In this document: positions 124-16,254 of the stretch, in pieces
Position numbering within the stretch: position 1 is the first letter of the stretch
Layout of the letters: every line of letters begins with the position of its first letter
IMG/VR virus record: IMGVR_UViG_3300014911_000466
From: a virus
Strand: one strand, 5' to 3'
DNA: 24,322 bases
Program-made: the position numbers and the translations under genes
The notes under the pieces: generated by a model
The model's input: only the letters and a program-made list of their open reading frames with translations
What the model was told of the DNA's origin: nothing
Database searches by the model: none

Positions 124-2127
124 AGAATCTACGATTATTATGCCACATTCTATGACCCTAACATGAGTGAGGTTAGGCTTTACGATGAAAGATGGGAAGT
201 TCAACGCTACAGAAATGGGAAATGGAATGATATAGGTGCTCAGTCAGGCGCTCCAATCTTCAAAATCTCTCAATCTGAAACTTGCATTAACATCACGAAG
301 AGCTTTCATTCATGGGCTGGCTGGCTCAATATAACCTATTGTTTCCGTGAAGGCTCTCCATTAAAACATACTGTAGTTTTTAAGTCTGAAATTGCTGAAG
401 CTACGACTTTTAGAATTATTCAGAAGTGGGCTGGAATAGTCGCGGCGAAGGTTAAGCATGCTAAAGGCGAGGATACAATAACTTCAGCTAAAACGATAGA
501 TAGCCCGTGGTTTAGGTTTGAGAAGGCGGATGGAAGCCTCAGCGTCTATGAGAATCAGTGGAGCATGTATTATGGCTTCAACGAGACGACTGGCGAGGTC
601 TACGTTCTCAGCAACCATAACTTGAAGCCCGTGGAGATTGACGTTCACGCTCGGGGATTGAAGGCGGATTTTGTGTTTGGAAACTGGACTTTGGCGAGTG
701 GAGAAAGATTAATTATTGACCCTGAAACAGCAACATTATCGCCTCCGCTAAGAGATACGTTTGCAGATGAATACAACCCTGACCTTGATAGGGAAAGCGA
801 AACTTACCTTTTAGTTGCCAACAAAACAGGCTACAGTGGACGGGCATATATTCTATTTAACTTGTCAAGTATCCCTTCGGATGCTTGGATTTCATCTGCA
901 CTACTGAAACTTTATCATTATGGTGGAACGGGGACGGTTGGTGAGCAGGCAACGATTCAGGCTCGCAGAGTTACTTCAAACTGGACAACAATAACATGGA
1001 ACAACCAGCCGTCTTTCTCCAGTGAGATAACAGCTGAAACCACTGTCACGTTTGGCAATTATGACTGGTATTCATGGGAGATTAAGAGTGATGTTCAGAT
1101 GTGGGTGAACGGTTCCTGCCCCAATTACGGAACTGTTCTGCTGATAAATGTTGCCAACAGCCCAGAGTTTTACTTTTACAGCCAAGAATATGACGGCTAT
1201 GACCCGCAGCTTGAAGTAACTTACACAGCTAACCAGCCTCCTAACGGTCCTACGCTTGACAGCCCAGCCAACGCCACACGCTTCAATCCTTCAGCAAACG
1301 TAACGTTCAACTGGACATTTAGCGATGCCGACGCTGGCGATTCGCAATCAGCCTTCCAGTTCCAGCTTGATGATAATTCGGATTTTTCCTCGCCGATAAT
1401 AGACACGGGCAAAGTCAGCAGTTCAACCTCAAGCACCACGCAGACTCTGCCCTCAACTGTCGGCTTATATTATTGGCGCGTCAAAACATGGGACAGTTAT
1501 GATGCTGAGGGTTCCTGGAGTAGCAGTAGAACATTAATTGTGGACAAACTTAACGTTACGTTTACAGTTTCGCCTGAAAATCCGCAGGCAGGAGACAAAA
1601 TCACTTTAAGCTGGACGATAAAACGGGAATATGACGGTTCAACCGTAACTAACTTTACAATTGACATTGCAAGAGACGGTGCCTTATGGATGGAAGACTT
1701 AACCGTGAATAATATAACGGACTACGAGGAGGAGGAGATGAGCCATACATATGATGTTTATGCGGGCACAGTAGTTGACTTGGATTACGGCTTAAACACA
1801 TGGGACAGCACTCCAATAACTGTAACTTGGACTGGAACCGGCGGAGGAGGAGGCAGCCTGCCTCCTGCTCCAGAGGAAACGCCGGCTCCAACTCCGACGT
1901 CTGAAGTAACGCCGCCTATGGCTCCATCTAACCTTGTTGTTGTCGGCGTCTTAATTATTGTTGGAATAGTTAGTTTCGCTGTGGCGAGCAGTGAGGCTAA
2001 GCCTAAGATTAGTGTTAGCCGTAGGAAATGGAGTTCGTCTCGTAGACGGGCTTTGAAGAAGAGGGTTAAATGGAGGAAGCCTAAGACGAAGGCGGTTAAG
2101 TGGAGGAGGGAGAAAACGTGGGAGTGA
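1..2127 (+). CDS. Large membrane-anchored adhesin (3' part; begins near 24050 across the junction, about 758 aa): N-terminal domain ending IIDP, DNRLRE-type domain, Fn3/Ig domains, G/P linker, TM helix, basic tail
   Basis: Frame is open from base 1 (HYKWVSAPQW...). DNRLRE-like motifs RAYILFNLSSIP, TWNNQP and NYG; Fn3-like YYWRVKTWD; C-terminal TM followed by a K/R/W-rich tail. Confidence 0.85.
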   Translation, partial: HYKWVSAPQWVWDGSAYVPYIFKDRYASEGYYQVQTGLIGARIYDYYATFYDPNMSEVRLYDERWEVQRYRNGKWNDIGAQSGAPIFKISQSETCINITKSFHSWAGWLNITYCFREGSPLKHTVVFKSEIAEATTFRIIQKWAGIVAAKVKHAKGEDTITSAKTIDSPWFRFEKADGSLSVYENQWSMYYGFNETTGEVYVLSNHNLKPVEIDVHARGLKADFVFGNWTLASGERLIIDPETATLSPPLRDTFADEYNPDLDRESETYLLVANKTGYSGRAYILFNLSSIPSDAWISSALLKLYHYGGTGTVGEQATIQARRVTSNWTTITWNNQPSFSSEITAETTVTFGNYDWYSWEIKSDVQMWVNGSCPNYGTVLLINVANSPEFYFYSQEYDGYDPQLEVTYTANQPPNGPTLDSPANATRFNPSANVTFNWTFSDADAGDSQSAFQFQLDDNSDFSSPIIDTGKVSSSTSSTTQTLPSTVGLYYWRVKTWDSYDAEGSWSSSRTLIVDKLNVTFTVSPENPQAGDKITLSWTIKREYDGSTVTNFTIDIARDGALWMEDLTVNNITDYEEEEMSHTYDVYAGTVVDLDYGLNTWDSTPITVTWTGTGGGGGSLPPAPEETPAPTPTSEVTPPMAPSNLVVVGVLIIVGIVSFAVASSEAKPKISVSRRKWSSSRRRALKKRVKWRKPKTKAVKWRREKTWE

Positions 2128-4082
2128 AAGTTTTTAGGATTGTTGCAACTGCATCTTTGATTTTGCTGATTTTACTTAGCCAATTTGCGGTTTTTCGGTT
2201 TATTCCGAAAGTGAAGGCTCAAGAGGAATGTCTTAAGATTTATTATGATTCTGAGAAGGGCTATTATTATTTCTGGACTTTGAATAGGGAAAAGGTTGTG
2301 CTTGAAAAGAATGGTTTTGCAGTTTTGAATAGATGGGATGGCGAAGCATGGATAAAATTTGGCTCGCTTCCTTCTGTGGGCGAGATTGAAATTGAGGTTG
2401 AGGCGGAGCTTGTAGAGAACAAGTTGAAGTGGAAAGGTAAATGGAAAATTGGAATAGAAGAAGTTGAAGTTGAAATAGAATTGGAGCCTAAGAACATTAG
2501 CGAGTATGGCGATTTAGAATGGAGCATGAAATTAACAGATAAACCGCCGATAAATGCTTTCTCTATGCCTATTCAAAGTGAAAATCTCAAATTTTATTAT
2601 CAGCCTCCGCTTTATGAGGAATATGGCTTTTCTTTGCCTTTCAGCAATAGCACTTTCTTTGTTAATGCTACTCATGTTATGGAATTTAATGGGACAGATT
2701 GGATAACGACAACTTATAGACCAGAAAACGTTGTTGGCTCTTATGCTATCTATCATGCCTATAAAATGCATAATGAATATAAGACTGGAAAAGCATTCCA
2801 CATTTACCGTCCCAAAATCATAGATGCAGAAGGAAATGAAGCTTGGTGTAACCTTAACATTTCTAATAATCTTTTGAAAATTGAGATTCCACAAGAATTT
2901 TTGGATAAGGCTGTTTATCCCGTAACCATTGACCCGACATTCGGATACACTACTAAAGGTGCAAACCAAGCATTAACTCCTGGAAATCGTATTTTTGCTT
3001 CATGGTATACATGCCCAGAGAATGGGCAAGCAAACAGCATAACCGTTTACTTAAAGCAATATAGTAGCTACACACCGAAAATTAAATGTGCCATTTATAG
3101 AAAATCTGATGGTTCTTTAATTGGTTACACAGAAGAGTGGCAATTGACAAGTGGATGGGACGGCTGGAGAACTTTTAGTATTATTTCGGGAGGAAACCTT
3201 CAAGCTGGCACGGATTATTGGTTAGCTATGTGGGGGAATGAATTCTATTACCGTTATTACGATTCAGTGTCAGACAAGGGCTGCCAAAAATCAGCTACTT
3301 ACAATGATTGGCCTGACCCCTTAACTGGTATTACCACAACAGACAACAAAAATAGCATTTACTGCACCTACACGGCTGGAGGCGGAGGTGATACTACACC
3401 GCCAACCTACGACGCTAACACTTTAGGAACAAACACTACCGCAGCTGGACAGCCATGCCTATTCCACTGCAACTGGAGCGACGATACTGGCTTGTCGGGC
3501 TTCATACTTGAACACAACAACACTGGCGTTTTAACAAACGAGACTTGGACAAGCTTTGACAGTTTAGGCACAGGCAACACATGGAGCAACATCACATTAA
3601 CTTTGAACAACACTGTAGGAGTTGTCATTCAATGGAGAATCTACGCTAACGACACAAGCAACAACTGGAACGTAACAGACATACAATATTTAACCACAAC
3701 ATTCTACGCTGAAATCACCATTCAAACAACAAGCCATTCCTGGAACATTATGCCTGGACAGTCTAACGTTCTCATAAACGAGGGAAACATCACAATCACG
3801 GTTACTGCAAACGCCAATTTCACAATTCAAGTTAAAGGAAGCGGAGATTTAACTTGCGGCTCCCATTCCATCCCGCTAAGCAACGTGAAAGTTCATAAAG
3901 ACACGTTAGCTTCAGCCATTAGCCTTTCAACCAGCTGGCAAGACGTGCCCGGCTTAGTTAATGTGGCTTCTGGAACAGATATCACGTTAAAGTTTAAGCT
4001 TTGGCTAAGCGTGCCGGATGGAACTCCGGCTGGAGATTACACCTATACGCTTTACATTCAGGTGGTGCAGTATAATGGCTAA
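2118..4082 (+). CDS. Secreted multidomain adhesin (signal peptide, YPVTIDP domain, beta-sandwich domains, C-terminal pilin-like domain); putative fibre tip
   Basis: Signal peptide and no C-terminal TM; last ~120 aa are paralogous to the C-terminus of 4162..5136; SD GGAGGAGG precedes GTG 2118. Confidence 0.8.
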   Translation: MGVKVFRIVATASLILLILLSQFAVFRFIPKVKAQEECLKIYYDSEKGYYYFWTLNREKVVLEKNGFAVLNRWDGEAWIKFGSLPSVGEIEIEVEAELVENKLKWKGKWKIGIEEVEVEIELEPKNISEYGDLEWSMKLTDKPPINAFSMPIQSENLKFYYQPPLYEEYGFSLPFSNSTFFVNATHVMEFNGTDWITTTYRPENVVGSYAIYHAYKMHNEYKTGKAFHIYRPKIIDAEGNEAWCNLNISNNLLKIEIPQEFLDKAVYPVTIDPTFGYTTKGANQALTPGNRIFASWYTCPENGQANSITVYLKQYSSYTPKIKCAIYRKSDGSLIGYTEEWQLTSGWDGWRTFSIISGGNLQAGTDYWLAMWGNEFYYRYYDSVSDKGCQKSATYNDWPDPLTGITTTDNKNSIYCTYTAGGGGDTTPPTYDANTLGTNTTAAGQPCLFHCNWSDDTGLSGFILEHNNTGVLTNETWTSFDSLGTGNTWSNITLTLNNTVGVVIQWRIYANDTSNNWNVTDIQYLTTTFYAEITIQTTSHSWNIMPGQSNVLINEGNITITVTANANFTIQVKGSGDLTCGSHSIPLSNVKVHKDTLASAISLSTSWQDVPGLVNVASGTDITLKFKLWLSVPDGTPAGDYTYTLYIQVVQYNG

Positions 4083-4083
4083 A

Positions 4084-4139
4084 TTCCGTCCAGAATCCGT
4101 CTTTAGGCGCATGCTTGCCTAAGACGGCTGGAAACGGAA
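4084..4139 (+). other. Intergenic RNA hairpin with bulge-helix-bulge-like geometry
   Basis: TTCCGT/ACGGAA outer stem, CCAG/CTGG 4-bp helix, AAT and AA bulges on opposite strands, 11-bp inner stem with one bulged T. Confidence 0.65.
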
Positions 4140-4161
4140 AATGGAAAGGAGAGATGGAAAA

Positions 4162-5136
4162 ATGAAACGTGAAATATTGGCTGTATCCCTGCTGTTAACG
4201 TTAGCCTTGGCTTTAACAGTGTCTATGCCTTTAGCTTTGGCTGCCACTGAAGGTTCAAGCTCAGGCACGGCTACTGTAGGAAACGCTGCACCCACAGTTT
4301 CTAATCCCGGCCTGTTTGACAGCGCAGACTCTACAAACTTGAACAATACAAACTTGGATGTCTGGGTGGAATATCATGTTAACTGCACCGTTTCAGACAG
4401 CAACCAGCTTATAGACTTAGTGAATGTAACTTTCATCATTTGGGAAACAACCTATGCAACCGAGTCTTCAGCCGACAATAACGTTAACCACTACACTTTT
4501 GCATGGATAAACAGCACCGACACTTGGGACGAGATTGGGCCGGATGGTTCTGGAGACAGTCACTTGGTGGCTGCAAGCTGCAGTGACCCCGCAGATTTGA
4601 CGGCTACAAGTGGAACCTGGAAGTTAGCGTTTAAACTTCATAAGACAGCAAACTACACCGCCAGCAAAACTTGGACTGTTAAAATAATTGCTTATGACAA
4701 CGCCGGAAACACTGGAACCGTTCAAACGTTATGGTTTGGAGTCAACTTCTACTTGGAGTTGACTGTGGATGACGCTTCCCATGGATGGAGCAGCCTAAGC
4801 CCAGGCGACACAGACGTTCTGATAGATACGCCAGCAGATGGAGATATTGACGTTACCGTAACGGCTAATGCGCCATTCACTCTGCAGGCAAAGGGAAGCG
4901 GGAACTTAGCTGATGGAAACGGAAACGAGATTCCTTTAAGCAACGTGAAAATCCACAAGGACACTCTGGCAAGCGCAACTTCTCTAAGCACAACCTACGC
5001 CGACATTGGAGGCTTAACAAACCTTCCAGCCGGCGAATCTCAAACATACTCGTTTAAACTTTGGATAAGCGTTCCTTCAGGGCAGCCAAGCGGAACCTAC
5101 ACGTACACGCTATACGTGCAGGGAATACAAGCCTAA
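4162..5136 (+). CDS. Secreted two-domain pilin-like protein, 324 aa; putative fibre shaft
   Basis: Signal peptide ending ALA; mature N-terminal strand ATEGSSSGTATVGN; Ig-like domain; C-terminal domain with IPLSNVKIHKDTLASA and GTYTYTLY; no membrane anchor. Confidence 0.75.
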   Translation: MKREILAVSLLLTLALALTVSMPLALAATEGSSSGTATVGNAAPTVSNPGLFDSADSTNLNNTNLDVWVEYHVNCTVSDSNQLIDLVNVTFIIWETTYATESSADNNVNHYTFAWINSTDTWDEIGPDGSGDSHLVAASCSDPADLTATSGTWKLAFKLHKTANYTASKTWTVKIIAYDNAGNTGTVQTLWFGVNFYLELTVDDASHGWSSLSPGDTDVLIDTPADGDIDVTVTANAPFTLQAKGSGNLADGNGNEIPLSNVKIHKDTLASATSLSTTYADIGGLTNLPAGESQTYSFKLWISVPSGQPSGTYTYTLYVQGIQA

Positions 5137-5151
5137 ACTGAGGGATAACCC

Positions 5152-5745
5152 ATGAGAGTCCTGCCTCTCGTTTCCCTACTTGTTTTCTTAGCGGCAGCCA
5201 TGCCGGTTGTTTATGCGTTGCCCAGTATCGGCGTAAGCCACTACAACACGGAAGCCATTATATATATTGGAGAAACCAAAGAGTTTCCGGTTGGAAGAAT
5301 CTACAATACTGGAGACGCGGTTTTAAACGCTTCATGCAATTGGATTCCAGATGGAAACTGCAGTTTAACCGTGAAGGTTAAGCCGGAAAGTTATCTGTTG
5401 AAGCCGGAAGACAGTTTCCAAGTTATCGTAGTTGTTGAATCTCCAAGCGAAGAGCAAATAGGTAACTATTCTGGAATAGTTGAGGTTCTATGTAAGCCAT
5501 TAAACATTACTGGGAATCCCGTTTCTCCCGCTGGGTCGTTGCAGATTAAAATACGCGTTCTACCTTTAACGGATCAAGCAGAGTCCGCAGGAAAAGAAAC
5601 AGGCGGGACTACATTCAATTATGGTTTGGTGGTTATTGTTTGTTTGGCTTTAGGTTCAATCGCTGTCTCTGCAGTTTGGTTCAAGAGAAACAAGAAGCCA
5701 ATTAAGAAGGTTGCTCCTACACGTTTTTTATTGTTTCATTATTAA
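5152..5745 (+). CDS. Signal peptide, Ig-like domain, C-terminal TM and basic tail (chaperone/anchor-like)
   Basis: Ig-like motifs IYNTGD and GNYSGIVEV; TM GLVVIVCLALGSIAVSAVWF; KRNKKPIKK. Confidence 0.75.
   Translation: MRVLPLVSLLVFLAAAMPVVYALPSIGVSHYNTEAIIYIGETKEFPVGRIYNTGDAVLNASCNWIPDGNCSLTVKVKPESYLLKPEDSFQVIVVVESPSEEQIGNYSGIVEVLCKPLNITGNPVSPAGSLQIKIRVLPLTDQAESAGKETGGTTFNYGLVVIVCLALGSIAVSAVWFKRNKKPIKKVAPTRFLLFHY
5724..5730 (+). other. Candidate -1 ribosomal frameshift heptamer T TTT TTA
   Basis: Correctly phased in the 5152 frame (CGT TTT TTA); the -1 frame is the downstream ORF. Confidence 0.5.
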
Positions 5746-6119
5746 TTGTGGTTTTTCTGGCTGGAATCAACGTAAACTATGCTTATGGGCTTGAAAGTTC
5801 CGAAGGGCAAGCAACAGTAATAAAGAAAGGCTCATACTCTACTGGCAACGCAACCATAATTGAAACTTTAGCATACTCTATTGGTGAAGCAATAATAAGG
5901 CTTGTTGGCGGCCCATGGGTTCCCCCAGTTCCTCCTGCTCCTCCAAGCCCAGTTCCTCCTATAGCCATTAGATTTCCGATTGAAAGAATTGTCATTGCCC
6001 TAATCATCATCGTTGCAACCTTGATTGTCATGGGCGTAAGCGAGAAACAACATAGGAAGCCGAAACTTAAACGCAGCAGAAAAAAATGGAGAAAAAAGAT
6101 TAGGCAGCCTTTAGATTAA
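5724..6119 (+). CDS. Membrane anchor with three 13-aa repeats, Pro-rich linker, TM and basic tail (track start 5748)
   Basis: The hydrophobic segment FFIVSLLIVVFLAG begins upstream of GTG 5748 with no canonical start; repeats follow S-x-G-x-A-[TI]-[VI]. Confidence 0.7.
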   Translation, partial: FFIVSLLIVVFLAGINVNYAYGLESSEGQATVIKKGSYSTGNATIIETLAYSIGEAIIRLVGGPWVPPVPPAPPSPVPPIAIRFPIERIVIALIIIVATLIVMGVSEKQHRKPKLKRSRKKWRKKIRQPLD

Positions 6120-6553
6120 GGTTGCAGGTTCAGATGGATTGTGAAGCTTTTTGTTCCGACTGGTTCTCCGCCGTACACATGTAAAGTTAACGTTCCATTA
6201 AGCCATTCTCCGGGCTGAACTGTGGCTCCCTGCCTGTCGTAGGTTAATGTCCAGCCTGAAGGCAAAGCCTCATAGGTTAAAGTCACGTTGAAAGGCATGT
6301 TTCCAGCGTTAAAAATGTTTAGCGGCTTTGAAGTGTCGCTTCCCGGCTCCACGTTTCCCCAATCATAAATGTTTAGGGTTGTGCTGTTCATTCTCTTTCC
6401 ATCCAAGTATACTTCAGCCTCCACTTTCTCGACGACATTCACGCTGACCTGAATGTCATAAACCAGAGAAGTGACGGCGTAGGCAATGCTTGCACACGCC
6501 AAAACGATTAGAACAGCCAACACAAAGCTTACACGCCTACTTCTCCTCAACAT
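6116..6553 (-). CDS. Secreted TasA/AbpA-like fibre subunit (signal peptide, N-terminal beta strand, single beta-sandwich)
   Basis: SD GGAGGTGA; signal peptide ending AYA; motifs DWGNVEPG, NAGNMP and TVQPG; no anchor. Confidence 0.6.
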   Translation of the reverse strand: MLRRSRRVSFVLAVLIVLACASIAYAVTSLVYDIQVSVNVVEKVEAEVYLDGKRMNSTTLNIYDWGNVEPGSDTSKPLNIFNAGNMPFNVTLTYEALPSGWTLTYDRQGATVQPGEWLNGTLTLHVYGGEPVGTKSFTIHLNLQP

Positions 6554-6574
6554 TTCTCACCTCCGTTTAAATTT

Positions 6575-7000
6575 TTATTTTTCATTTAGAAGCCTCCATT
6601 TTGGATGATTCTTTAATTCCTCCGCGTGCCTGCTACATACTGGATATTCCCTGTTTGTCGGCGCAAAAATGGCTGTGGTTACGGCTATGTTCTCGCAGAA
6701 ATGGCATTTCGGCGCCGAAACTTTATTTTGAATTAGAACTGTGCTGTGCGGCTCTGCCTTGATGAATTGGATGAGTGTAGGCTGTTGCTTTCTTTCTTCA
6801 CATTCCTGGTTGAACCTTTCTATGAGCATGTCGATGGCTTGAGAAAGAGATAGCCTCGTGTATTTGCGGACGTTATCCTTGAAAAGTTCCATTTGTCCTA
6901 CGCGAAGATAGAAAGTGTAGCATTTACGGTATTCATTATTTAAATTATTTAAATTATTTAATGACTCTTTAACATTATTATTATCTGGAGTGTAGGACAT
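6575..7000 (-). CDS. Hypothetical DNA-binding protein (RHH-like segment plus C-terminal CxxC...CxxH Zn finger)
   Basis: YTFYLR...SLSQAIDMLIERF; CHFC...CSRH. Confidence 0.55.
   Translation of the reverse strand: MSYTPDNNNVKESLNNLNNLNNEYRKCYTFYLRVGQMELFKDNVRKYTRLSLSQAIDMLIERFNQECEERKQQPTLIQFIKAEPHSTVLIQNKVSAPKCHFCENIAVTTAIFAPTNREYPVCSRHAEELKNHPKWRLLNEK
6935..6961. repeat. 3 x ATTATTTAA tandem repeat
   Basis: Exact copies at 6935, 6944 and 6953. Confidence 0.9.
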
Positions 7001-7169
7001 TTTCTTTCCTCCTATTTCTTAACATTTCATAAATGGAATAGCGAACCAGCTCGCTAACTGTTCTGCCAGAAGATTCGGCTAACTGCTCCAGCTGCCTTTT
7101 AATACGCGGCTCAACTCTAACTCTTAAAACGCAGTCTTTACGCTCACGAAAAACTCCAGCCTTACTCAA
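6981..7169 (-). CDS. Ribbon-helix-helix (CopG-like) protein
   Basis: VLRVRVEPRIKRQLEQLAESSGRTVSELVR. Confidence 0.85.
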   Translation of the reverse strand: MSKAGVFRERKDCVLRVRVEPRIKRQLEQLAESSGRTVSELVRYSIYEMLRNRRKENVLHSR

Positions 7170-7371
7170 TTTTTTCCGCTCCTATTTTGCCTGTTTCTAT
7201 TGTGTGGTTTATCCAGCAGAAGCTTCCGTCAAACATGGCATGACACTTGCCTTGACGGTTGCACGCCGCAACTTTCCCTTTAAAAGTCAACTCGGTTTCC
7301 GTTACGTCTTTAAGCGTTAACTCAACGCATTCCTTAACTTTTGGGCAATACTGCAAAACCTTAACCTTCAT
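7162..7371 (-). CDS. Small Cys-rich protein
   Basis: Five Cys plus His residues; coupled overlaps with neighbouring ORFs. Confidence 0.6.
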   Translation of the reverse strand: MKVKVLQYCPKVKECVELTLKDVTETELTFKGKVAACNRQGKCHAMFDGSFCWINHTIETGKIGAEKIE

Positions 7372-7628
7372 TTTTCCGCTTCCCTCTTTCGTTTTGCTAA
7401 AATTTCAAAGATTTTCTTTAATCTCTCAAACTCACCATAAATTTCGACAAGTTTTTCACTCGTTACCTCGTTTTCAGTCATTTTTTCTAAACCTTCAATA
7501 ACTTCCATCATCTCTTGGCAAAGCCATTCCATACTGGTTGGTTCGCTTGGTGAGATGTTGCCTTCTTCCAAATTTTTTATGATTAAATTCAAAGAATACA
7601 TCACACGACGAAAGTGTCTATCTTTCAT
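7368..7628 (-). CDS. Hypothetical helical protein
   Basis: Overlap-coupled ORF in the operon. Confidence 0.6.
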   Translation of the reverse strand: MKDRHFRRVMYSLNLIIKNLEEGNISPSEPTSMEWLCQEMMEVIEGLEKMTENEVTSEKLVEIYGEFERLKKIFEILAKRKREAEK

Positions 7629-7906
7629 TCCTTCAACAACTCCTCTAATTCATTAACCCATCTCAAAAGTTGTTCCCGATTTCTTCCACCATAATTAAGG
7701 TTAATATTTCCTTTTAACCAGCCAAATAAATGCACAAATTTCTCTTTCTCGGTTAGAACATATTTTTGTTTTAGTTGTTGGAGTATGCTTAGAACGTCCT
7801 CAAGCCTAACCCATTTATGTCTGCGTAAAACCCATTCTGGAAGCTCATAACGCTCAAAGGCTTTTTGTTTGAGCCTCTCCTCCAATCCTTTCCAAACATC
7901 ACTCAT
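7625..7906 (-). CDS. Hypothetical protein, 93 aa
   Basis: ATG 7906 lies next to the upstream stop; SD-like GGAGG upstream. Confidence 0.6.
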   Translation of the reverse strand: MSDVWKGLEERLKQKAFERYELPEWVLRRHKWVRLEDVLSILQQLKQKYVLTEKEKFVHLFGWLKGNINLNYGGRNREQLLRWVNELEELLKE

Positions 7907-8078
7907 GGTTTGTTTTCCTCCTTTTTCTTTTGTCATGCGGTTTTGTCCGGAGCTTCCGATGGCATTTCGGGCAGACTGGCAAGCCTTTTCCGTTGATTTT
8001 ATGCTCGCCTTTCCTTATCCAGATTCCACACCAAGGACAATAATAATACCAGGCGTAACGGCTAACAGCCACAGGCAA
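7899..8078 (-). CDS. Zinc-ribbon protein, 59 aa
   Basis: CPWC...CPKC; TTG start immediately after the upstream stop. Confidence 0.7.
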   Translation of the reverse strand: MPVAVSRYAWYYYCPWCGIWIRKGEHKINGKGLPVCPKCHRKLRTKPHDKRKRRKTNHE

Positions 8079-8079
8079 C

Positions 8080-8253
8080 TCATCTACGCCTCCTTTTCTT
8101 TCTTTTCGGCCTGAAATGTTCACATTCCACTATGGAATCGCGGTGGATAAGCGGATTGTTAAAGTGAGCGTTTGGGTTGACGCATTCAACATGTAACTCG
8201 TCAAAGTATCGGCTAAAACAGCATTTCCAGCATAAAACCTTAGCCTTAGGCAA
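8080..8253 (-). CDS. Small Cys-rich protein, 57 aa (not in ORF track)
   Basis: MPKAKVLCWKCCFSRYFDELHVECVNP...ECEHFRPKRKKRRRR; GGAGG SD; fills the operon gap. Confidence 0.6.
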   Translation of the reverse strand: MPKAKVLCWKCCFSRYFDELHVECVNPNAHFNNPLIHRDSIVECEHFRPKRKKRRRR

Positions 8254-8392
8254 TTCTTTTCCTCCGCTTTTTTATTACTCGAAAAGTCAAATCGCGAATG
8301 TTATCGAGGTAATTAAGCAAAAGCTGAAAGCCATACCTTCCGCCCTTGTATAGGATGCGTTTACCCCTAAAAATCAAATAAACATCACTCAT
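8246..8392 (-). CDS. Small basic protein, 48 aa (not in ORF track)
   Basis: MSDVYLIFRGKRILYKGGRYGFQ...; ATGA overlap with the upstream stop. Confidence 0.55.
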   Translation of the reverse strand: MSDVYLIFRGKRILYKGGRYGFQLLLNYLDNIRDLTFRVIKKRRKRIA

Positions 8393-9180
8393 TTTTGGAC
8401 AGCCTCCAGCAAAGTTTTTTGGCTTAAAATCTCATCTAACCGACTAATCCAAGCCTTAAAGAATCGTTTTCTTTCCTCAGAGTTTTTACAGCTCCAATTT
8501 CCCAGCTTTGAGTTTACTGGGCGTGTCCATGCTGTGCTATCGAAACTGTCAATAAAGCCTTTAACAAGCCTCAAAGCTCTAAGCTTCAAACCAAAAACAT
8601 GAAGTTTCTTGTCTGGGAGTAGTTTTCTTGCAAGCCAGCATGTAGCGTAAATAATCATTATTTCCGGCTCAACACATAACATTCCAATTGCAAAATAGTC
8701 AAATTCAGAAAGAATGCCACTTCCCTGATACAGCTTTATGCATCTTTCTATGCTTTTCGGCTGTTTATTCCATCCCTGAACCGGAATAAGCCAATTAACA
8801 TAATCAAACTTCTCCGTATATTTAACGACATTCTGAAATGTCCTTTCAATATTAGTAACTTCTGTGGAAAGCCAAAGATTGCCAGGATGATAGTCATCGC
8901 AGTAATCTGGAACTGTAGCGTAAACTTCAGCATCCGGAAGAATACGCCTCAAATAATTATGAAGCTTAACAATCCTGTAGATATGTCCTTTCGGATAGTC
9001 TTTAACTTGTGGATTTCTGAAAATCTCAATGCCACTGTCAACTATAACGCTTTTAATAGCCTTTCTATGCCTGTGGATGTAGCCTAAAGCAGGATTATTA
9101 GCGTTAATCAATATATATGGCCAATCCACATCGGAAGGAGGCAAAGTATAAAATCTAATCACGGCTACATCAGCTCCCAA
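8389..9180 (-). CDS. tRNA-guanine transglycosylase / DpdA-like enzyme
   Basis: Motifs VDSG, PDY, IPVQG, AIG, LHVFG and DSFDSTAW in TGT-barrel order; the start may be GTG 9162. Confidence 0.75.
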   Translation of the reverse strand: MGADVAVIRFYTLPPSDVDWPYILINANNPALGYIHRHRKAIKSVIVDSGIEIFRNPQVKDYPKGHIYRIVKLHNYLRRILPDAEVYATVPDYCDDYHPGNLWLSTEVTNIERTFQNVVKYTEKFDYVNWLIPVQGWNKQPKSIERCIKLYQGSGILSEFDYFAIGMLCVEPEIMIIYATCWLARKLLPDKKLHVFGLKLRALRLVKGFIDSFDSTAWTRPVNSKLGNWSCKNSEERKRFFKAWISRLDEILSQKTLLEAVQK

Positions 9181-9497
9181 AGCTTAAAATACGGTCTTTT
9201 CCCGTGAAACCAGCCGTGCCCAAGCAGCCTATGCGTTAACTCATCGCTTCTATTCATGGCTTTCTGGATTGCTTCAAGCTGTTCCTGCGTGAGGAAAAGC
9301 GTTGGAACCCCAAAATCCTCATCGACTTGTGAAGGCTTTAGGATTAGGGCTACTCCCCAGCCATTCCCAGGATACTTAGCCTTGACTTTTCTGTTTCCAA
9401 AGCCGTTCCAGCCATCATAAGAGCGGACAATGCGAGCTTCACCTAAATGGAAATATCCGTCCTTGCGAAGAATCAAGACTATCGCCCTCAGCCTCAT
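9165..9497 (-). CDS. Hypothetical protein
   Basis: Coupled ORF in the operon. Confidence 0.6.
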   Translation of the reverse strand: MRLRAIVLILRKDGYFHLGEARIVRSYDGWNGFGNRKVKAKYPGNGWGVALILKPSQVDEDFGVPTLFLTQEQLEAIQKAMNRSDELTHRLLGHGWFHGKRPYFKLWELM

Positions 9498-9745
9498 TGA
9501 ATCACTTTAAGCGATTTCGTAATCTCATCAAATTCGAGAGTTTTAACTTGGAATCCTTCGTTGCGGATTAGTTTAGCGAGTTCTTCGGGTAATTGCTCTC
9601 CTTCATACAGTACGATGCGTGAACCGCTAAAGTAGGCTACTTTCTCAATGTTGCCTTTCTCGTCTATCGTGTAAAAGATGGTTCCCAATTCGTGAAGCGA
9701 ATGCTTAAGCAATTCCGGATTCTTAATCCGAGCAAACAAGCTCAT
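9494..9745 (-). CDS. Hypothetical protein
   Basis: ATGA-coupled ORF. Confidence 0.6.
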   Translation of the reverse strand: MSLFARIKNPELLKHSLHELGTIFYTIDEKGNIEKVAYFSGSRIVLYEGEQLPEELAKLIRNEGFQVKTLEFDEITKSLKVIQ

Positions 9746-12335: not shown

Positions 12336-12436
12336 AAACTCTCTTCTGTAACCTACCTATATATATAAAATTTGTGACCATGATGTTACAAATTTTAGAG
12401 TAAAATTATTATAGATTTTGTCACATTTATGTAACA
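12319..12436. promoter_or_regulatory. Divergent promoter region with repeated TGTNACA operator-like heptamers
   Basis: TATA-like runs near 12358-12370 and 12405-12413; heptamer pairs at 12319/12330, 12373/12384 and 12419/12430. Confidence 0.7.
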
Positions 12437-13749
12437 TGGAGTTTCGCATGCAGAAAAAATATCCTGAAGAAAAAGAAGATAAACATGCAACAGTGAGAAT
12501 TCCGAGAGAACTCTTAAATTCCATAGAGGAGTTCCTCAAAACAAACGATGCAAAAAATAGAGGATTACTTCACAAGACAGATGTAGTTACAGCAGCAGTA
12601 AGAGAATTCTTAGAGGAGAGAGGATTCTTTCCAAAACCATCGAAGCCACCATTAGAACATTTCAATTTAAACGAAGACGGAGTCATAATTATTGACAGAA
12701 TAATAGAGCCCGGAAAAGAAAGACTTATCCAAGTTTACTTTAAGCCACAAGGCATACTATGCGAATATCACAACTCAAACGACTGTTATCACATTCGCTA
12801 TGCATACACAAAAGAGGACATCAAAAAAGTATTAAGAAAACATTACAAAGAAGGTTGGAAAATTCCAGACCCAGACAATCCAGAAGAATGGTGGGGCTGC
12901 CCGGATTTGAACCGGGGTCCCGAGAGCCCGAGTCTGCTTGTTGATTGGCGAAAACTCCGTAAAGATTTTCTTGTTTGGTTGAATAGTCGAGATTTGGCTT
13001 TTGATTATAGGCGTAGTATTGTCAATTATTTGGATAGGTTTGCGCCGAAACTTCGTAATGGTATGGATGTTGTCCGTTTGTTTGATAGTTTATCGGCGGG
13101 CCAGAAGCATTGTTTATTGTTTTCGCTTAGGAACTTGTTTAATTTTTGTGAGTTGGCTGGTTTTGATTCTGCTTTTATTGATGGTTTGCGTAAGGCTTTG
13201 CCTAAGGATTCTCGTTTTGTGGATAGTTATGTTCCGAGTGAAGAAGTTGTTAGGCAGAGTATAGGGAAGTTGCGGCGCATTCCAGCCAAGTATAAGGCGG
13301 TCTATAGGCTATTGTTGGAGTCTGGGTTGAGGCTTAGGGAGGCTGTTAGGCTAAGTAATGAATTTCATGAATTATATGAAAAATCTGAAATGTATGAAAG
13401 GTTTGTTTGTGTTCCGCTTTTCTGGGTTCGAGCAAGCAAGAAAAGCTTTTATGCCTATTTTATGCGTGAAACCGCAAAAATGCTATGGAATAACGGAGAA
13501 AAGCTTAGTGCAGATGCTACAAGTAAGGTTTGTAGGCGGTATGGGTTGGTGGCTCCAAAATATTTGCGGAAATTCGTTTTCCATAAAATGCTTGAGTTGG
13601 AAATTCCAGAGGGAGTAGCCGACTTCATTCAGGGAAGGGCTCCCAAAACGGTAGGTGAAAGACATTATGCCAATCTTAAACGTTTAGCAGACAAATACTA
13701 TCCAAAATATGCGGAATACTTGGAGAGGTTAAGGAATTCTGTTCTATAG
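12436..13749 (+). CDS. int: SSV1/pTN3-type tyrosine integrase with N-terminal RHH and Zn-binding domain, interrupted by attP
   Basis: Catalytic motifs SGLRLREA, KYLRK, IQGR and HY; tRNA-antisense peptide WWGCPDLNRGPESPS inside the ORF. Confidence 0.9.
   Translation: MEFRMQKKYPEEKEDKHATVRIPRELLNSIEEFLKTNDAKNRGLLHKTDVVTAAVREFLEERGFFPKPSKPPLEHFNLNEDGVIIIDRIIEPGKERLIQVYFKPQGILCEYHNSNDCYHIRYAYTKEDIKKVLRKHYKEGWKIPDPDNPEEWWGCPDLNRGPESPSLLVDWRKLRKDFLVWLNSRDLAFDYRRSIVNYLDRFAPKLRNGMDVVRLFDSLSAGQKHCLLFSLRNLFNFCELAGFDSAFIDGLRKALPKDSRFVDSYVPSEEVVRQSIGKLRRIPAKYKAVYRLLLESGLRLREAVRLSNEFHELYEKSEMYERFVCVPLFWVRASKKSFYAYFMRETAKMLWNNGEKLSADATSKVCRRYGLVAPKYLRKFVFHKMLELEIPEGVADFIQGRAPKTVGERHYANLKRLADKYYPKYAEYLERLRNSVL
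12889..12935 (-). other. attP core: 3' half of tRNA-Pro(CGG) including CCA (47 bp)
   Basis: Minus strand AGA CTCGGGC TCT CG GGAC CCCGG TTCAAAT CCGGG CAGCCCC A CCA; anticodon CGG, T-arm and acceptor 3' strand present; 5' half absent. Confidence 0.9.
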
Positions 13750-14192: not shown

Positions 14193-14528
14193 TTACCATC
14201 TGAACTTCATCATAGGCCGTAATTTTGAAGCGTCTGGCAAATCATCTACTGTTTTTCCTATCTTATTTAGCCACCTTTGAATAACCCCCCAATCGTGAAT
14301 GCGCTTATGGCATTCATAGCAATAAAGATGCAAGTTTCCTTGTGCATCATGATGGAATTCGCCACCTCTACAAGAAACTTGGTAAGCTCTACCATTTTTG
14401 GAAACCCTTAAACTGCCTTGAAGCTTCTTTCCACAAAATTCACATGCAGTTTCGAATTGGTTAAATCCAGTATGGAATTTTAACCCTTGCTTCTCCAAAT
14501 ACTTCAACTTTTCATCGTCTAAGCCCAA
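14193..14528 (-). CDS. HNH-type Zn-binding endonuclease-like protein
   Basis: CEFC...HH...GNLHLYCYECHKRIH. Confidence 0.65.
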   Translation of the reverse strand: MGLDDEKLKYLEKQGLKFHTGFNQFETACEFCGKKLQGSLRVSKNGRAYQVSCRGGEFHHDAQGNLHLYCYECHKRIHDWGVIQRWLNKIGKTVDDLPDASKLRPMMKFRW

Positions 14529-15205
14529 AGCTTATCGGCCTCCCTTATTTTTGAAAGTATTTTCCTTGGTGACTTATGAACATAATTCAATGCTGTTTCA
14601 ATCCTTGCGAATTTCGCGAAGTCTTGCAGCTCAAATGGATCCATTACATCGCTTAAATGAGTAAGCCTTTGATGCCTAAACCAGTGAACCCAAATATTTG
14701 GATCCAACTCATGCAGTATCTGCCATGCTCTTTGACGAGTTAAATTGAACGGTTTTCTAATGCCTTTCTCTTTACAATAATTTAGCCAGTCAATAATGTA
14801 TTTGGATAATGGATCCAACAAGCGAATGTCAACGTGATCCATAACCACTTTTAGTCCATTCTTAGCTCTGCCCCTTTTCAGAACTCTTATTCGCATTCTC
14901 ATAATCTTCTCATTTTCGACTTCTCCAAATTGGAAGTCATCGAGAGTTACTCCTTCCCACACATCCACGGATCCGTCCGGTAACTTTTTCACACGGCCGA
15001 CAATCTCGCTGATACGTCTCGCACTTAAATAGAGCAGAGCAATCAAAGCCTTATTTCTCATCTTCTGCTCTTTGGGCGTTAATCCACTCTTCAAACCAAA
15101 GCCATAATCCATCATATCAACACGGGAAATCAAACCTTCAATATAGTTCCTTCTAACAGCCATCAAACCCTCAGTAGTTCTACGTTTAGCTCCCCCCTTC
15201 TTCAT
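14519..15205 (-). CDS. Second tyrosine recombinase (catalytic domain only, Xer-like)
   Basis: SARRISEI, HWFRH and C-terminal NY; the usual LGH is replaced by AKF. Confidence 0.85.
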   Translation of the reverse strand: MKKGGAKRRTTEGLMAVRRNYIEGLISRVDMMDYGFGLKSGLTPKEQKMRNKALIALLYLSARRISEIVGRVKKLPDGSVDVWEGVTLDDFQFGEVENEKIMRMRIRVLKRGRAKNGLKVVMDHVDIRLLDPLSKYIIDWLNYCKEKGIRKPFNLTRQRAWQILHELDPNIWVHWFRHQRLTHLSDVMDPFELQDFAKFARIETALNYVHKSPRKILSKIREADKLWA

Positions 15206-15264: not shown

Positions 15265-16254
15265 TCACCCTTGAAAGGCTGTTTTCTTTTCTTTTTTAGG
15301 TTTTGTCTTAATTAAAGAATATATGGCTTGGTTTCTGGGGACGTTTTGGAGCGCTTGCCGTTTGTCGATTGCTTCTAAGACTTCTAAGCCTAAGTCTGTT
15401 AGGTCATACCAGTAGGTTGATTTTTTCCTTATTGGAACGATGAGGTCTCTTGCTTTGCATCGCGTTAATGCATCTTTGTATTTTTGAGGGAGCGCGTCAG
15501 GGTTTCGCTCACGGAACCGTTCATACGAAATCATGCCTTTCTCTCGAATAAGCTCCATTAGTTCGATGTCTTCTGGCTTCAGCCTTTTAATGATGTAGTC
15601 CACTCTTGACTCTGCAAGGGCATCTTTCACTCTTACTATTACCTCGTCGACTAAGGCCATTCTCATCTGGTCGTATTCTTGGTAGACATCTTTGGGTACA
15701 GGTTCAAACACGTTGGTTTCAATCCATTCTTTACGTCTTTTAGGTTTCCAGCCTTTATAGTCCTGGTCCCACAGTACTCTGTCATATTTGTAAACGCCTC
15801 TTTTAGGAATGAAAACTTCATGTGTGTATTTCTGCATGATCTGATAGGTTGGCTCGGTGGGATCCACCATAGTAGCTATTAATACAGCTAAGCGAGTGGC
15901 CAAAACGTCGAATCCTCCTTTAAACGCGTCCCAAGCTCTGTCATATTGGGTTTCAGCCTTGTTGCTGTGGGCTCCGAAATCATCGTAAATCAAGATTGGC
16001 ACTCGCATGTGAAGCTTGTTTAAGGTAGGCACTCTTTCAGGCTCGCCTTTCTCAACTTTATACATTAGCCCCGAAAGATTAAATACGAAGCTTTGCAGAA
16101 CCTTGTCCCAGTCTTTATACCATGTATATGCAAGCTGCATGGCAAACGTTGTTTTTCCGCCGCGCTGCACGCCCCAAACCACAATCCACATCCATTCATC
16201 ATTAAGAATAGCATTCCATATGTCCCTTACTACACGCGGCCTTCTCTCCGTCAT
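15265..16254 (-). CDS. P-loop ATPase with C-terminal winged-helix-like domain
   Basis: Walker A GVQRGGKT, Walker B ILIYDD; C-terminal wHTH-like region ending YDLTDLGLEVL. Confidence 0.8.
   Translation of the reverse strand: MTERRPRVVRDIWNAILNDEWMWIVVWGVQRGGKTTFAMQLAYTWYKDWDKVLQSFVFNLSGLMYKVEKGEPERVPTLNKLHMRVPILIYDDFGAHSNKAETQYDRAWDAFKGGFDVLATRLAVLIATMVDPTEPTYQIMQKYTHEVFIPKRGVYKYDRVLWDQDYKGWKPKRRKEWIETNVFEPVPKDVYQEYDQMRMALVDEVIVRVKDALAESRVDYIIKRLKPEDIELMELIREKGMISYERFRERNPDALPQKYKDALTRCKARDLIVPIRKKSTYWYDLTDLGLEVLEAIDKRQALQNVPRNQAIYSLIKTKPKKEKKTAFQG

Follow-up and report, generated by a model that had tools for sequence, protein, structure and literature searches.

A probable base anchor with three tandem donor strands in a putative chaperone-assisted pilus operon of an archaeal mobile element

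The DNA analysed in this study is a stretch of 24,322 nucleotides (nt) from the IMG/VR virus record IMGVR_UViG_3300014911_000466, here called the window, and the subject is a small open reading frame (ORF) located at positions 5748-6119. This ORF probably encodes the base subunit, i.e. the terminator and membrane anchor, of a chaperone-assisted pilus assembled by donor-strand exchange and carried by an archaeal mobile element. Support for this assignment comes from sequence, predicted structures and comparison of loci, the family being known here from its genes alone. What is new in the proposed base anchor is the tandem triplication of the donor strand. The ORF is part of a row of co-directional genes on the + strand, which also contains an ORF at 1-2127 and in which four putative pilus genes are found:

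2100-4082, + strand: tip candidate, 660 amino acids
4141-5136, + strand: pilin candidate, 331 amino acids
5152-5745, + strand: chaperone candidate, 197 amino acids
5748-6119, + strand: anchor ORF, 123 amino acids, GTG start

The predicted architecture of the anchor is as follows, with residues numbered along the anchor protein:

5790-5828, + strand: repeat 1, residues 15-27, the closest of the three to the pilin N-terminus
5829-5867, + strand: repeat 2, residues 28-40
5868-5906, + strand: repeat 3, residues 41-53, with the highest hydrophobicity among the repeats
5907-5969, + strand: Pro-rich stalk, residues 54-74, with 10 Pro
5988-6038, + strand: predicted transmembrane helix, approximately residues 81-97
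6039-6116, + strand: predicted basic cytoplasmic tail, with 13 K/R versus 2 D/E

The best Kyte-Doolittle window of 19 residues (81-99, mean 2.7) identifies the transmembrane helix, and the basic tail, according to the positive-inside rule, implies that the repeats are outside the cell. The ectodomain comprises about 63 residues, 39 in the repeats and the remainder Pro-rich; because the stalk, the transmembrane helix and the tail make up the rest of the anchor, the repeats represent nearly the whole predicted ectodomain. No Pfam or NCBIfam family was matched by the anchor, and the composition of the ectodomain, together with the lack of a domain family match, indicates that no acceptor (pilin) domain is present. 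The LPxTG sortase signal is absent from the anchor (LP.TG pattern), which is therefore presumably retained in the membrane rather than linked by a sortase. The homologues of the anchor are P0002, P0195 and the L003 copy; a profile search built on four anchors returned a single additional variant, P0195, and a feature search of the Atlas with the anchor was uninformative (scores <=0.79). An archaeosortase-type C-terminal signal was also considered for the anchor and rejected, as it contains no PGF/PEF motif.

The three 13-residue repeats (nt 5790-5906) had been recognized in a preliminary description of the window, in which the range 5775-5915 brackets them. Scored against itself with BLOSUM62 at a lag of 13, the 39-residue stretch reaches 33, a value attained by none of 5000 shuffles of the same 39 residues (best-lag score: mean 1.0, standard deviation 6.3, maximum 31). 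At the DNA level no tandem repeat was detected by Tandem Repeats Finder, and the repeats must therefore be old and diverged. The preliminary description also held that the repeats share the N-terminal motif of the pilin and are followed by a Pro-rich stalk, a transmembrane helix and a basic tail, making up nearly all of the ectodomain; composition and hydropathy bear out the latter point. As for the former, the motif S-x-G-x-A-x-[VI] was derived from an alignment of pilins alone (42 sequences), where conservation is high at alternating positions (S40 in 40/42, G42 in 42/42, A44 in 41/42, V/I46 in 42/42, N48 in 35/42) and at P51 (40/42), and the residues between the conserved alternating positions vary freely. 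In the six-frame translation of the 24.3-kb window, this motif occurs exactly four times, namely at pilin residue 40 and in the three anchor repeats, the expectation being 1.3 occurrences for the whole window and 0.0009 per 39-residue stretch. Each repeat thus keeps the four alternating positions that are best conserved in the pilin, in agreement with what had been proposed, and S, G and A are invariant in every repeat across four anchor variants of 58-72% identity.

At the fifth position of the strand, 35 of the 42 pilins have Asn (pilin residue 48, window 4282-4284). The corresponding anchor residues 26, 39 and 52 are Lys, Glu and Leu, and Asn is rarely found at this position in the anchors of other loci. 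The departure of the anchors at the fifth position appears systematic, and resembles the differences noted between ElrB, a subunit of a bacterial pilus discussed below, and its pilin consensus.

The AlphaFold2 (AF2) model of the pilin, with a predicted local distance difference test score (pLDDT) of 92, comprises a signal peptide, a free N-terminal extension and two immunoglobulin-like (Ig-like) domains. No secondary structure is predicted for residues ~30-50 (pLDDT 62-76), and the strands begin at residue 52. The extension is the presumed donor strand:

4246-4293, + strand: N-terminal extension of the pilin, residues 36-51, with S40, G42, A44, V46 and N48, then P51

The top match of the pilin in a Foldseek search of the PDB was 3f84, a CfaB-CfaB fusion of chaperone-usher pilins (E-value 4e-7, template modelling score 0.33); SafDAA and FimH were also among the matches, beside many generic Ig ones. 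The nearest named ESM Atlas clusters were SCPU, the archaic chaperone-usher pilins, and WxL (template modelling scores 0.53 and 0.55, respectively). A sequence search of the PDB with the pilin gave chance matches only, and no Pfam match to families of the TasA/TapA type, including Peptidase_M73, was obtained. The pilin family amounts to 266 representative clusters at E<=1e-3 and exists in two forms, one of ~320 amino acids and one of 600-1500 amino acids that ends in the pilin module. A literature search yielded no publication on this archaeal pilin family.

Judged from its sequence, the C-terminal part (~150 residues) of the 660-residue protein is a paralogue of the C-terminal domain of the pilin, the two sharing 51% identity in a BLASTP alignment between pilin residues 181-330 and tip residues 513-657 (E 5e-42). 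The same protein contains neither the S-x-G-x-A motif nor a pilin-type N-terminal strand, and is a candidate for the tip adhesin.

The 197-residue protein was modelled by AF2 (pLDDT 84) as a signal peptide followed by one Ig-like domain (residues 26-137), a transmembrane helix (157-179) and a basic tail. When compared with known structures by VIA-align, it matched the PapD-like domain of CEP192 (Z score 12.4) and a series of pilus chaperones and related proteins: YadV (11.8), SafB (11.4), FimC (11.3), FaeE (11.1), CsuC (10.8), EcpB (10.8), the WxLIP of E. faecium (9i1y, 10.7), CfaA (10.6) and PapD (10.1). Foldseek likewise returned FaeE, PapD, FimC and CsuC, with E-values from 1e-5 to 1e-4. 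Among 15 homologues of the protein, seven matched the HYDIN/VesB/CFA65-like Ig family, which is of the PapD-like type (best E-value 4e-5), and two matched WxLIP_PGBD weakly (E 0.079). The fold match corresponds to domain 1 of PapD-family chaperones, the 197-residue protein having one domain, not two, and a transmembrane anchor in addition. On these models, the protein is a candidate membrane-tethered PapD-like pilus chaperone, and a gene for a PapD-like transmembrane protein follows the pilin gene in most related loci. No description of a membrane-tethered PapD-like pilus chaperone in archaea was found in the literature.

A pilus could be assembled from these four proteins as follows. The tip, which would have an acceptor domain and no strand, and the pilins would be secreted, and would then be held at the membrane by the transmembrane-tethered PapD-like protein. 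The N-terminal strand of each pilin, with its S-x-G-x-A-x-V/I pattern, would complete the C-terminal Ig-like domain of the next distal subunit, until a strand of the anchor fills the groove of the most proximal pilin and growth stops; the Pro-rich stalk, the transmembrane helix and the basic tail would then hold the fibre to the membrane. The anchor is expected to end the fibre because it has a strand and no acceptor domain. In the preliminary description, the protein was seen as a membrane anchor displaying copies of the N-terminal strand of the pilin, and this view is strengthened by the free extension of the pilin, the strand-less tip, the PapD-like neighbour, the related fourth genes of other loci and the logic of the ElrB and PamR base subunits, considered below. 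The same description left open whether the anchor caps or nucleates fibres. Capping is favoured and nucleation appears unlikely, because an acceptor-only tip combined with a donor-only anchor reproduces the polarity of chaperone-usher and Elr pili, in which the donor-only subunit is at the base.

Since the motif stands directly after the predicted cleavage site in the pilins, it might alternatively be a processing, sorting or glycosylation signal near the signal-peptide cleavage site, in which case the small protein would have nothing to do with anchoring a fibre; related loci do encode an S26/S24 signal-peptidase-like gene and Rce1-like proteases. However, three internal copies of a cleavage-site motif within 39 residues would have no obvious use, conservation on one face of an alternating pattern is of the beta-strand type, and the tip, which lacks the motif, is secreted. 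Strand exchange is favoured by the logic of the operon and by the fold evidence, and we consider a signal of this kind very improbable.

Relatives of the pilin are found on many metagenomic contigs. Where present, a small gene further downstream encodes a signal peptide, a pilin-like strand, a spacer, a transmembrane helix and a basic tail, and in L033, L034, L035, L026, L028/L014 and L018 it follows the chaperone gene. Comparison of repeat number among homologues had been suggested in the preliminary description, and the number does vary, being either one or three. Among the loci fetched through the pilin, on which this tally rests, one strand is the common state, occurring in seven locus types, and three strands occur in two clades:

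L033: one strand, no spacer other than the Pro-rich stalk; alignable over the full length of the window anchor except for repeats 2-3, which it lacks
L034 and L035: one strand, Ig-like domain as spacer
L013/L017: one strand, Ig-like domain as spacer; anchor directly after the pilin, with no separate chaperone ORF seen between them
L014/L028: one strand, FN3-like domain as spacer; the strand follows the motif variant of its own pilin
L026 and L018: one strand, larger ectodomains
Window clade, four variants: three strands, Pro-rich stalk, 13-residue period
L005/L006/L031/L032: three strands, Pro-rich stalk, 16-residue period

The L005 anchor, too, aligns with the window anchor over its full length. 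As the homologous L033 anchor has one strand, three strands are not strictly required; most plausibly, the tandem arrangement raises the chance of capture or offers alternative docking registers.

Docking of the anchor into the pilin was examined by complex prediction, using pilin residues 50-331 (own strand removed) and anchor residues 13-60, both supplied as alignments. The interaction prediction score from aligned errors (ipSAE) was 0.47 (0.33, 0.58 and 0.47 in the individual runs) versus 0.02 for the best control. In the calibration of this score, 58 of 80 solved complexes and 2 of 110 mismatched pairs reach the mark, a pass at <=0.60 being rated weak, so that the prediction fits docking as weak support. 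The anchor itself was modelled with a pLDDT of 44-47 beside the pilin, versus 31 beside an unrelated protein.

It should be noted that several observations weigh against the assignment of the ORF as a pilus base anchor. The docking score is weak, agreement of contacts between runs is 0% and no interface was reported. When a single repeat is compared with the pilin 10-mer, the score is 20, tied with random 10-mers from the six-frame translation. The pilin has no match to the WxL or SCPU Pfam models, and the 42 pilins have none to WxL (PF13731) even at E<=1; in addition, the fold lists obtained for the pilin (VIA-align, PDB) cover the whole protein and are filled by its N-terminal V-type Ig domain, not by the C-terminal acceptor domain. 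With translation from the GTG codon, the N-terminus of the anchor makes no convincing signal peptide, as it consists of 14 weakly hydrophobic residues and has no basic n-region. Finally, L029, L030, L011 and L012 have a pilin and a chaperone and no such anchor gene.

The number of strands invites the idea, put forward in the preliminary description, that the anchor is a trivalent hub, in which each repeat fills a different pilin simultaneously, so that three fibres, or three stacked acceptor domains, would give tufted or bundled appendages. The S, G, A and V/I positions are kept in all three repeats and are invariant in the four variants, a second clade also has three copies, with a 16-residue period, and each unit is approximately of donor-strand length (14 residues in ElrD). 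The lack of contacts in common between runs may also reflect different repeats docking in different runs of the prediction, as would be expected of such a hub. However, the 13-residue units have no linkers, and three pilins of ~30 kDa would need to be placed end to end; one strand is present in the homologous L033 anchor and in further locus types; and neither a multi-strand terminator nor a branched donor-strand pilus was found in the published literature. Three pilins per anchor, and the branched or bundled fibres that would follow, are unsupported so far in view of the weak docking and the one-strand L033 homologue, and such a hub appears unlikely.

A different use of the repeats would be to fold on themselves or on each other, as a three-stranded beta-meander or an oligomeric sheet that replaces a folded spacer, with at most repeat 1 acting as a donor. 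In most one-strand anchors (L034, L035, L013, L014, L026) a folded domain comes after the strand, and in the window anchor nothing else could fill its place. The short K-G and T-L junctions between units could be turns, and similarity to the pilin is greatest in repeat 1, hydrophobicity in repeat 3. On the other hand, the ectodomain was modelled with low confidence in every run, at the pLDDT values given above for either partner, and L033, with one strand and a Pro-rich stalk only, implies that a folded spacer is unnecessary. The face of small residues S/G/A is moreover present in all three units exactly as in the strand of the pilin, and we regard self-folding of the repeats as quite improbable.

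The junction between the chaperone and anchor genes deserves separate consideration. The chaperone frame contains a heptamer whose -1 frame is the anchor frame:

5724-5730, + strand: T_TTT_TTA heptamer in the chaperone frame

The anchor could thus be made, wholly or in part, as the C-terminal portion of a chaperone-anchor fusion produced by -1 frameshifting at this heptamer. The fusion would be a protein with three transmembrane segments, exposing the PapD-like domain and the three strands outside, and could serve as a platform for priming or hand-over, or set the ratio of terminator to chaperone, rather than being a free terminator; it would be compatible with the base-anchor assignment. No stop interrupts the anchor frame from 5706 onwards, and the hydrophobic segment it encodes begins before any ATG, GTG or TTG. 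The sequence CGTTTTTTA is invariant in three diverged variants averaging 76% DNA identity, and a single continuous ORF encodes both the chaperone and the triple-strand anchor on four contigs from different samples in the L005/L006/L031/L032 clade (L005:6553-7671; L031:6123-7106). The N-terminus of the stand-alone anchor is, as noted above, a poor signal peptide. However, no stimulatory RNA structure was found 3' of the heptamer (folding z: +1.9 in the window, -0.3 and -1.1 in relatives), and the conservation of the heptamer may merely reflect two overlapping coding frames. An overlap of stop and start with re-initiation is ordinary, and a separate protein could arise in L005 from an internal Met that precedes a good signal peptide. 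Production of the anchor through frameshifting is consequently doubtful in our opinion.

In chaperone-usher pili, growth is stopped by PapH and FimI, which sit at the cell-proximal end and give their N-terminal strand to the final rod subunit. Both are complete pilin-fold subunits held by a chaperone and by an outer-membrane usher, whereas the window anchor has no pilin domain, lacks the complete fold with a groove of its own that terminators of the PapH/FimI type have, and is accompanied by no usher.

Closer analogies are offered by two bacterial systems, both described in 2026 preprints. On our best reading, which is one of analogy, the window operon would match the Elr/WxL and Pam pili part for part, and the anchor would be ElrB/PamR-like. 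The Elr/WxL pilus of Enterococcus faecalis has a tip, ElrA, with an acceptor only, and a membrane-anchored DUF916 chaperone, ElrE, with a fold like that of CsuC, CfaA, Caf1M and EcpB; ElrB has a donor strand, no acceptor domain, a transmembrane helix and a basic tail, and is the proposed base terminator; the donor consensus is [S/T]-x-[G/A]-x-[V/I]-x-F (bioRxiv 10.64898/2026.10.17.759780). The likeness extends to the acceptor-only tip, the pilin with strand and acceptor, and the membrane-anchored PapD-like chaperone encoded alongside, as in the window operon, and the Elr consensus has the same alternating form as S-x-G-x-A-x-V/I. The differences are that ElrB has one strand and an LPxTG for covalent attachment to the wall, whereas the window anchor has three strands, a Pro-rich stalk and no LPxTG, and that the window pilin has two Ig-like domains and no WxL Pfam match. 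According to the same authors, the Elr system is confined to Bacillota, and archaeal pili dependent on twin-arginine translocation (Tat) assemble without chaperone or usher (bioRxiv 10.64898/2026.10.17.759780).

In the Pam pilus of candidate phyla radiation (CPR) bacteria, PamC and PamD are membrane-anchored PapD/FimC-like chaperones, and PamR, composed of an N-terminal strand predicted to insert in the last pilin, two FnIII domains and a transmembrane helix, is proposed to terminate and tether the fibre (PMC13278184). PamR resembles the window anchor in having an N-terminal strand and a C-terminal transmembrane helix beside membrane-anchored chaperones. With its single strand and two FnIII domains, however, it is nearer to the one-strand anchors of L014/L028, L034 and L035 than to the triple-strand anchor, which has a stalk only.

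Among archaeal systems, Saci_0405 of the Sulfolobus thread has a donor strand and no acceptor site and is a proposed filament cap, the polarity of the thread not being known (PMC9715654). The window anchor shares with it the donor strand without an acceptor site, but Saci_0405 has a globular pilin-like domain, one strand, no transmembrane anchor and no chaperone in its locus. TafF, the proposed membrane anchor of haloarchaeal Tat-fimbriae, accepts a pilin strand, and the tip TafC donates one (PMC11821415, PMC12337348). Like the window anchor, TafF is a membrane protein of archaea for which a role in terminating and anchoring a strand-donation fibre is proposed, but the polarity is opposite, since in the window the anchor would donate and the tip accept. 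The TasA/AbpA bundling pili have a jelly-roll subunit with a TapA/AbpB partner, a beta-sandwich in the TapA-like case; the window pilin is modelled as two Ig-like domains. In general, archaeal donor-strand filaments, namely the archaeal bundling pili (ABP), threads, cannulae and Tat-fimbriae, are described as chaperone-free, and the ABP loci show no chaperone. No account of a pilus of the Elr or Pam kind in archaea was found in the literature.

Together with the ~266 representative pilin clusters, the operon suggests that the four-part design of the bacterial systems is also present in archaea and in mobile elements of archaea. The anchor would offer a handle on how a fibre is ended and tethered without a cell wall or a sortase, and the natural one- and three-strand anchors provide a comparison for the effect of strand number on capture, fibre length and bundling. 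It is also conceivable, if distinctly improbable, that all three strands are used, one anchor serving three shafts or acceptor domains, and that a possible chaperone fusion fixes the ratio, and hence the length of the fibre, in what would be the first donor-strand pilus of archaea to depend on a chaperone, on a fusellovirus-like element. If all three strands were used, the element would remodel the surface of its host, or possibly decorate its own envelope, with a pilus forming tufts or bundles from a single base; if the fusion were made in frame in one clade and by -1 frameshifting in the window clade, the ratio of terminator to chaperone would be fixed, and with it fibre length.

As to the element itself, the following genes are located downstream of the operon:

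12418-13749, + strand; 14519-15205, - strand; 15265-16254, - strand: integrase, recombinase and initiator genes

These encode an integrase of the archaeal SSV type (PF16795, E 2e-35), another tyrosine recombinase and an initiator resembling DnaA, which indicates that the pilus operon rides on a fusellovirus- or plasmid-like archaeal element. In the relatives L029 and L030, unlike in the window element, the pilus genes lie among ordinary cellular genes. No usher-like ORF is present in the operon or elsewhere in the window, and the host is presumably a single-membrane archaeon. A search of viral contigs with the pilin alignment gave no relative, and one of genome contigs (GTDB species representatives) gave a single distant locus, L025, from a metagenome-assembled genome (MAG) of Candidatus Hadarchaeota. 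Besides this MAG, the loci found include a protein of an Archaeoglobales MAG and contigs with typical archaeal housekeeping genes. In the L025 locus (2932-9687), a distant pilin-like gene is paired with a gene of the PapD-like type several times in succession, with a different N-terminal motif.

In related loci, the region upstream of the tip gene repeatedly contains genes for Rce1-like (CPBP) intramembrane proteases (L026:2980-3681, L027:1833-2522, L028:709-1302). Neither such a protease gene nor an S26/S24-like gene is among the window ORFs scanned. In L031, genes of the Rce1-like protease and small S26/S24 signal-peptidase-like kinds are found at 1217-1750 and 1858-2325, and the small S26/S24-like gene of L031/L032 recalls SipW of the TasA operons.

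The two genes flanking the putative pilus operon are the following:

1-2127, + strand: large ORF with open 5' end that immediately precedes the tip gene and encodes CBM96/DNRLRE and Rha78A-like Ig domains
6116-6553, - strand: convergent gene, 145 amino acids, whose stop overlaps the anchor stop and which may belong to the pilus system

A role of ORF 1-2127 as a second tip was considered and rejected, there being no similarity to the tip or to the pilin module. The window contig may be circular, with this ORF crossing its ends. The 145-residue protein of the convergent gene has an N-terminal hydrophobic segment and an Ig-like domain, with weak matches of the NPCBM_assoc and CARDB type. A 66%-identical relative has the same gene in the same place (L001:2060-2497, - strand).

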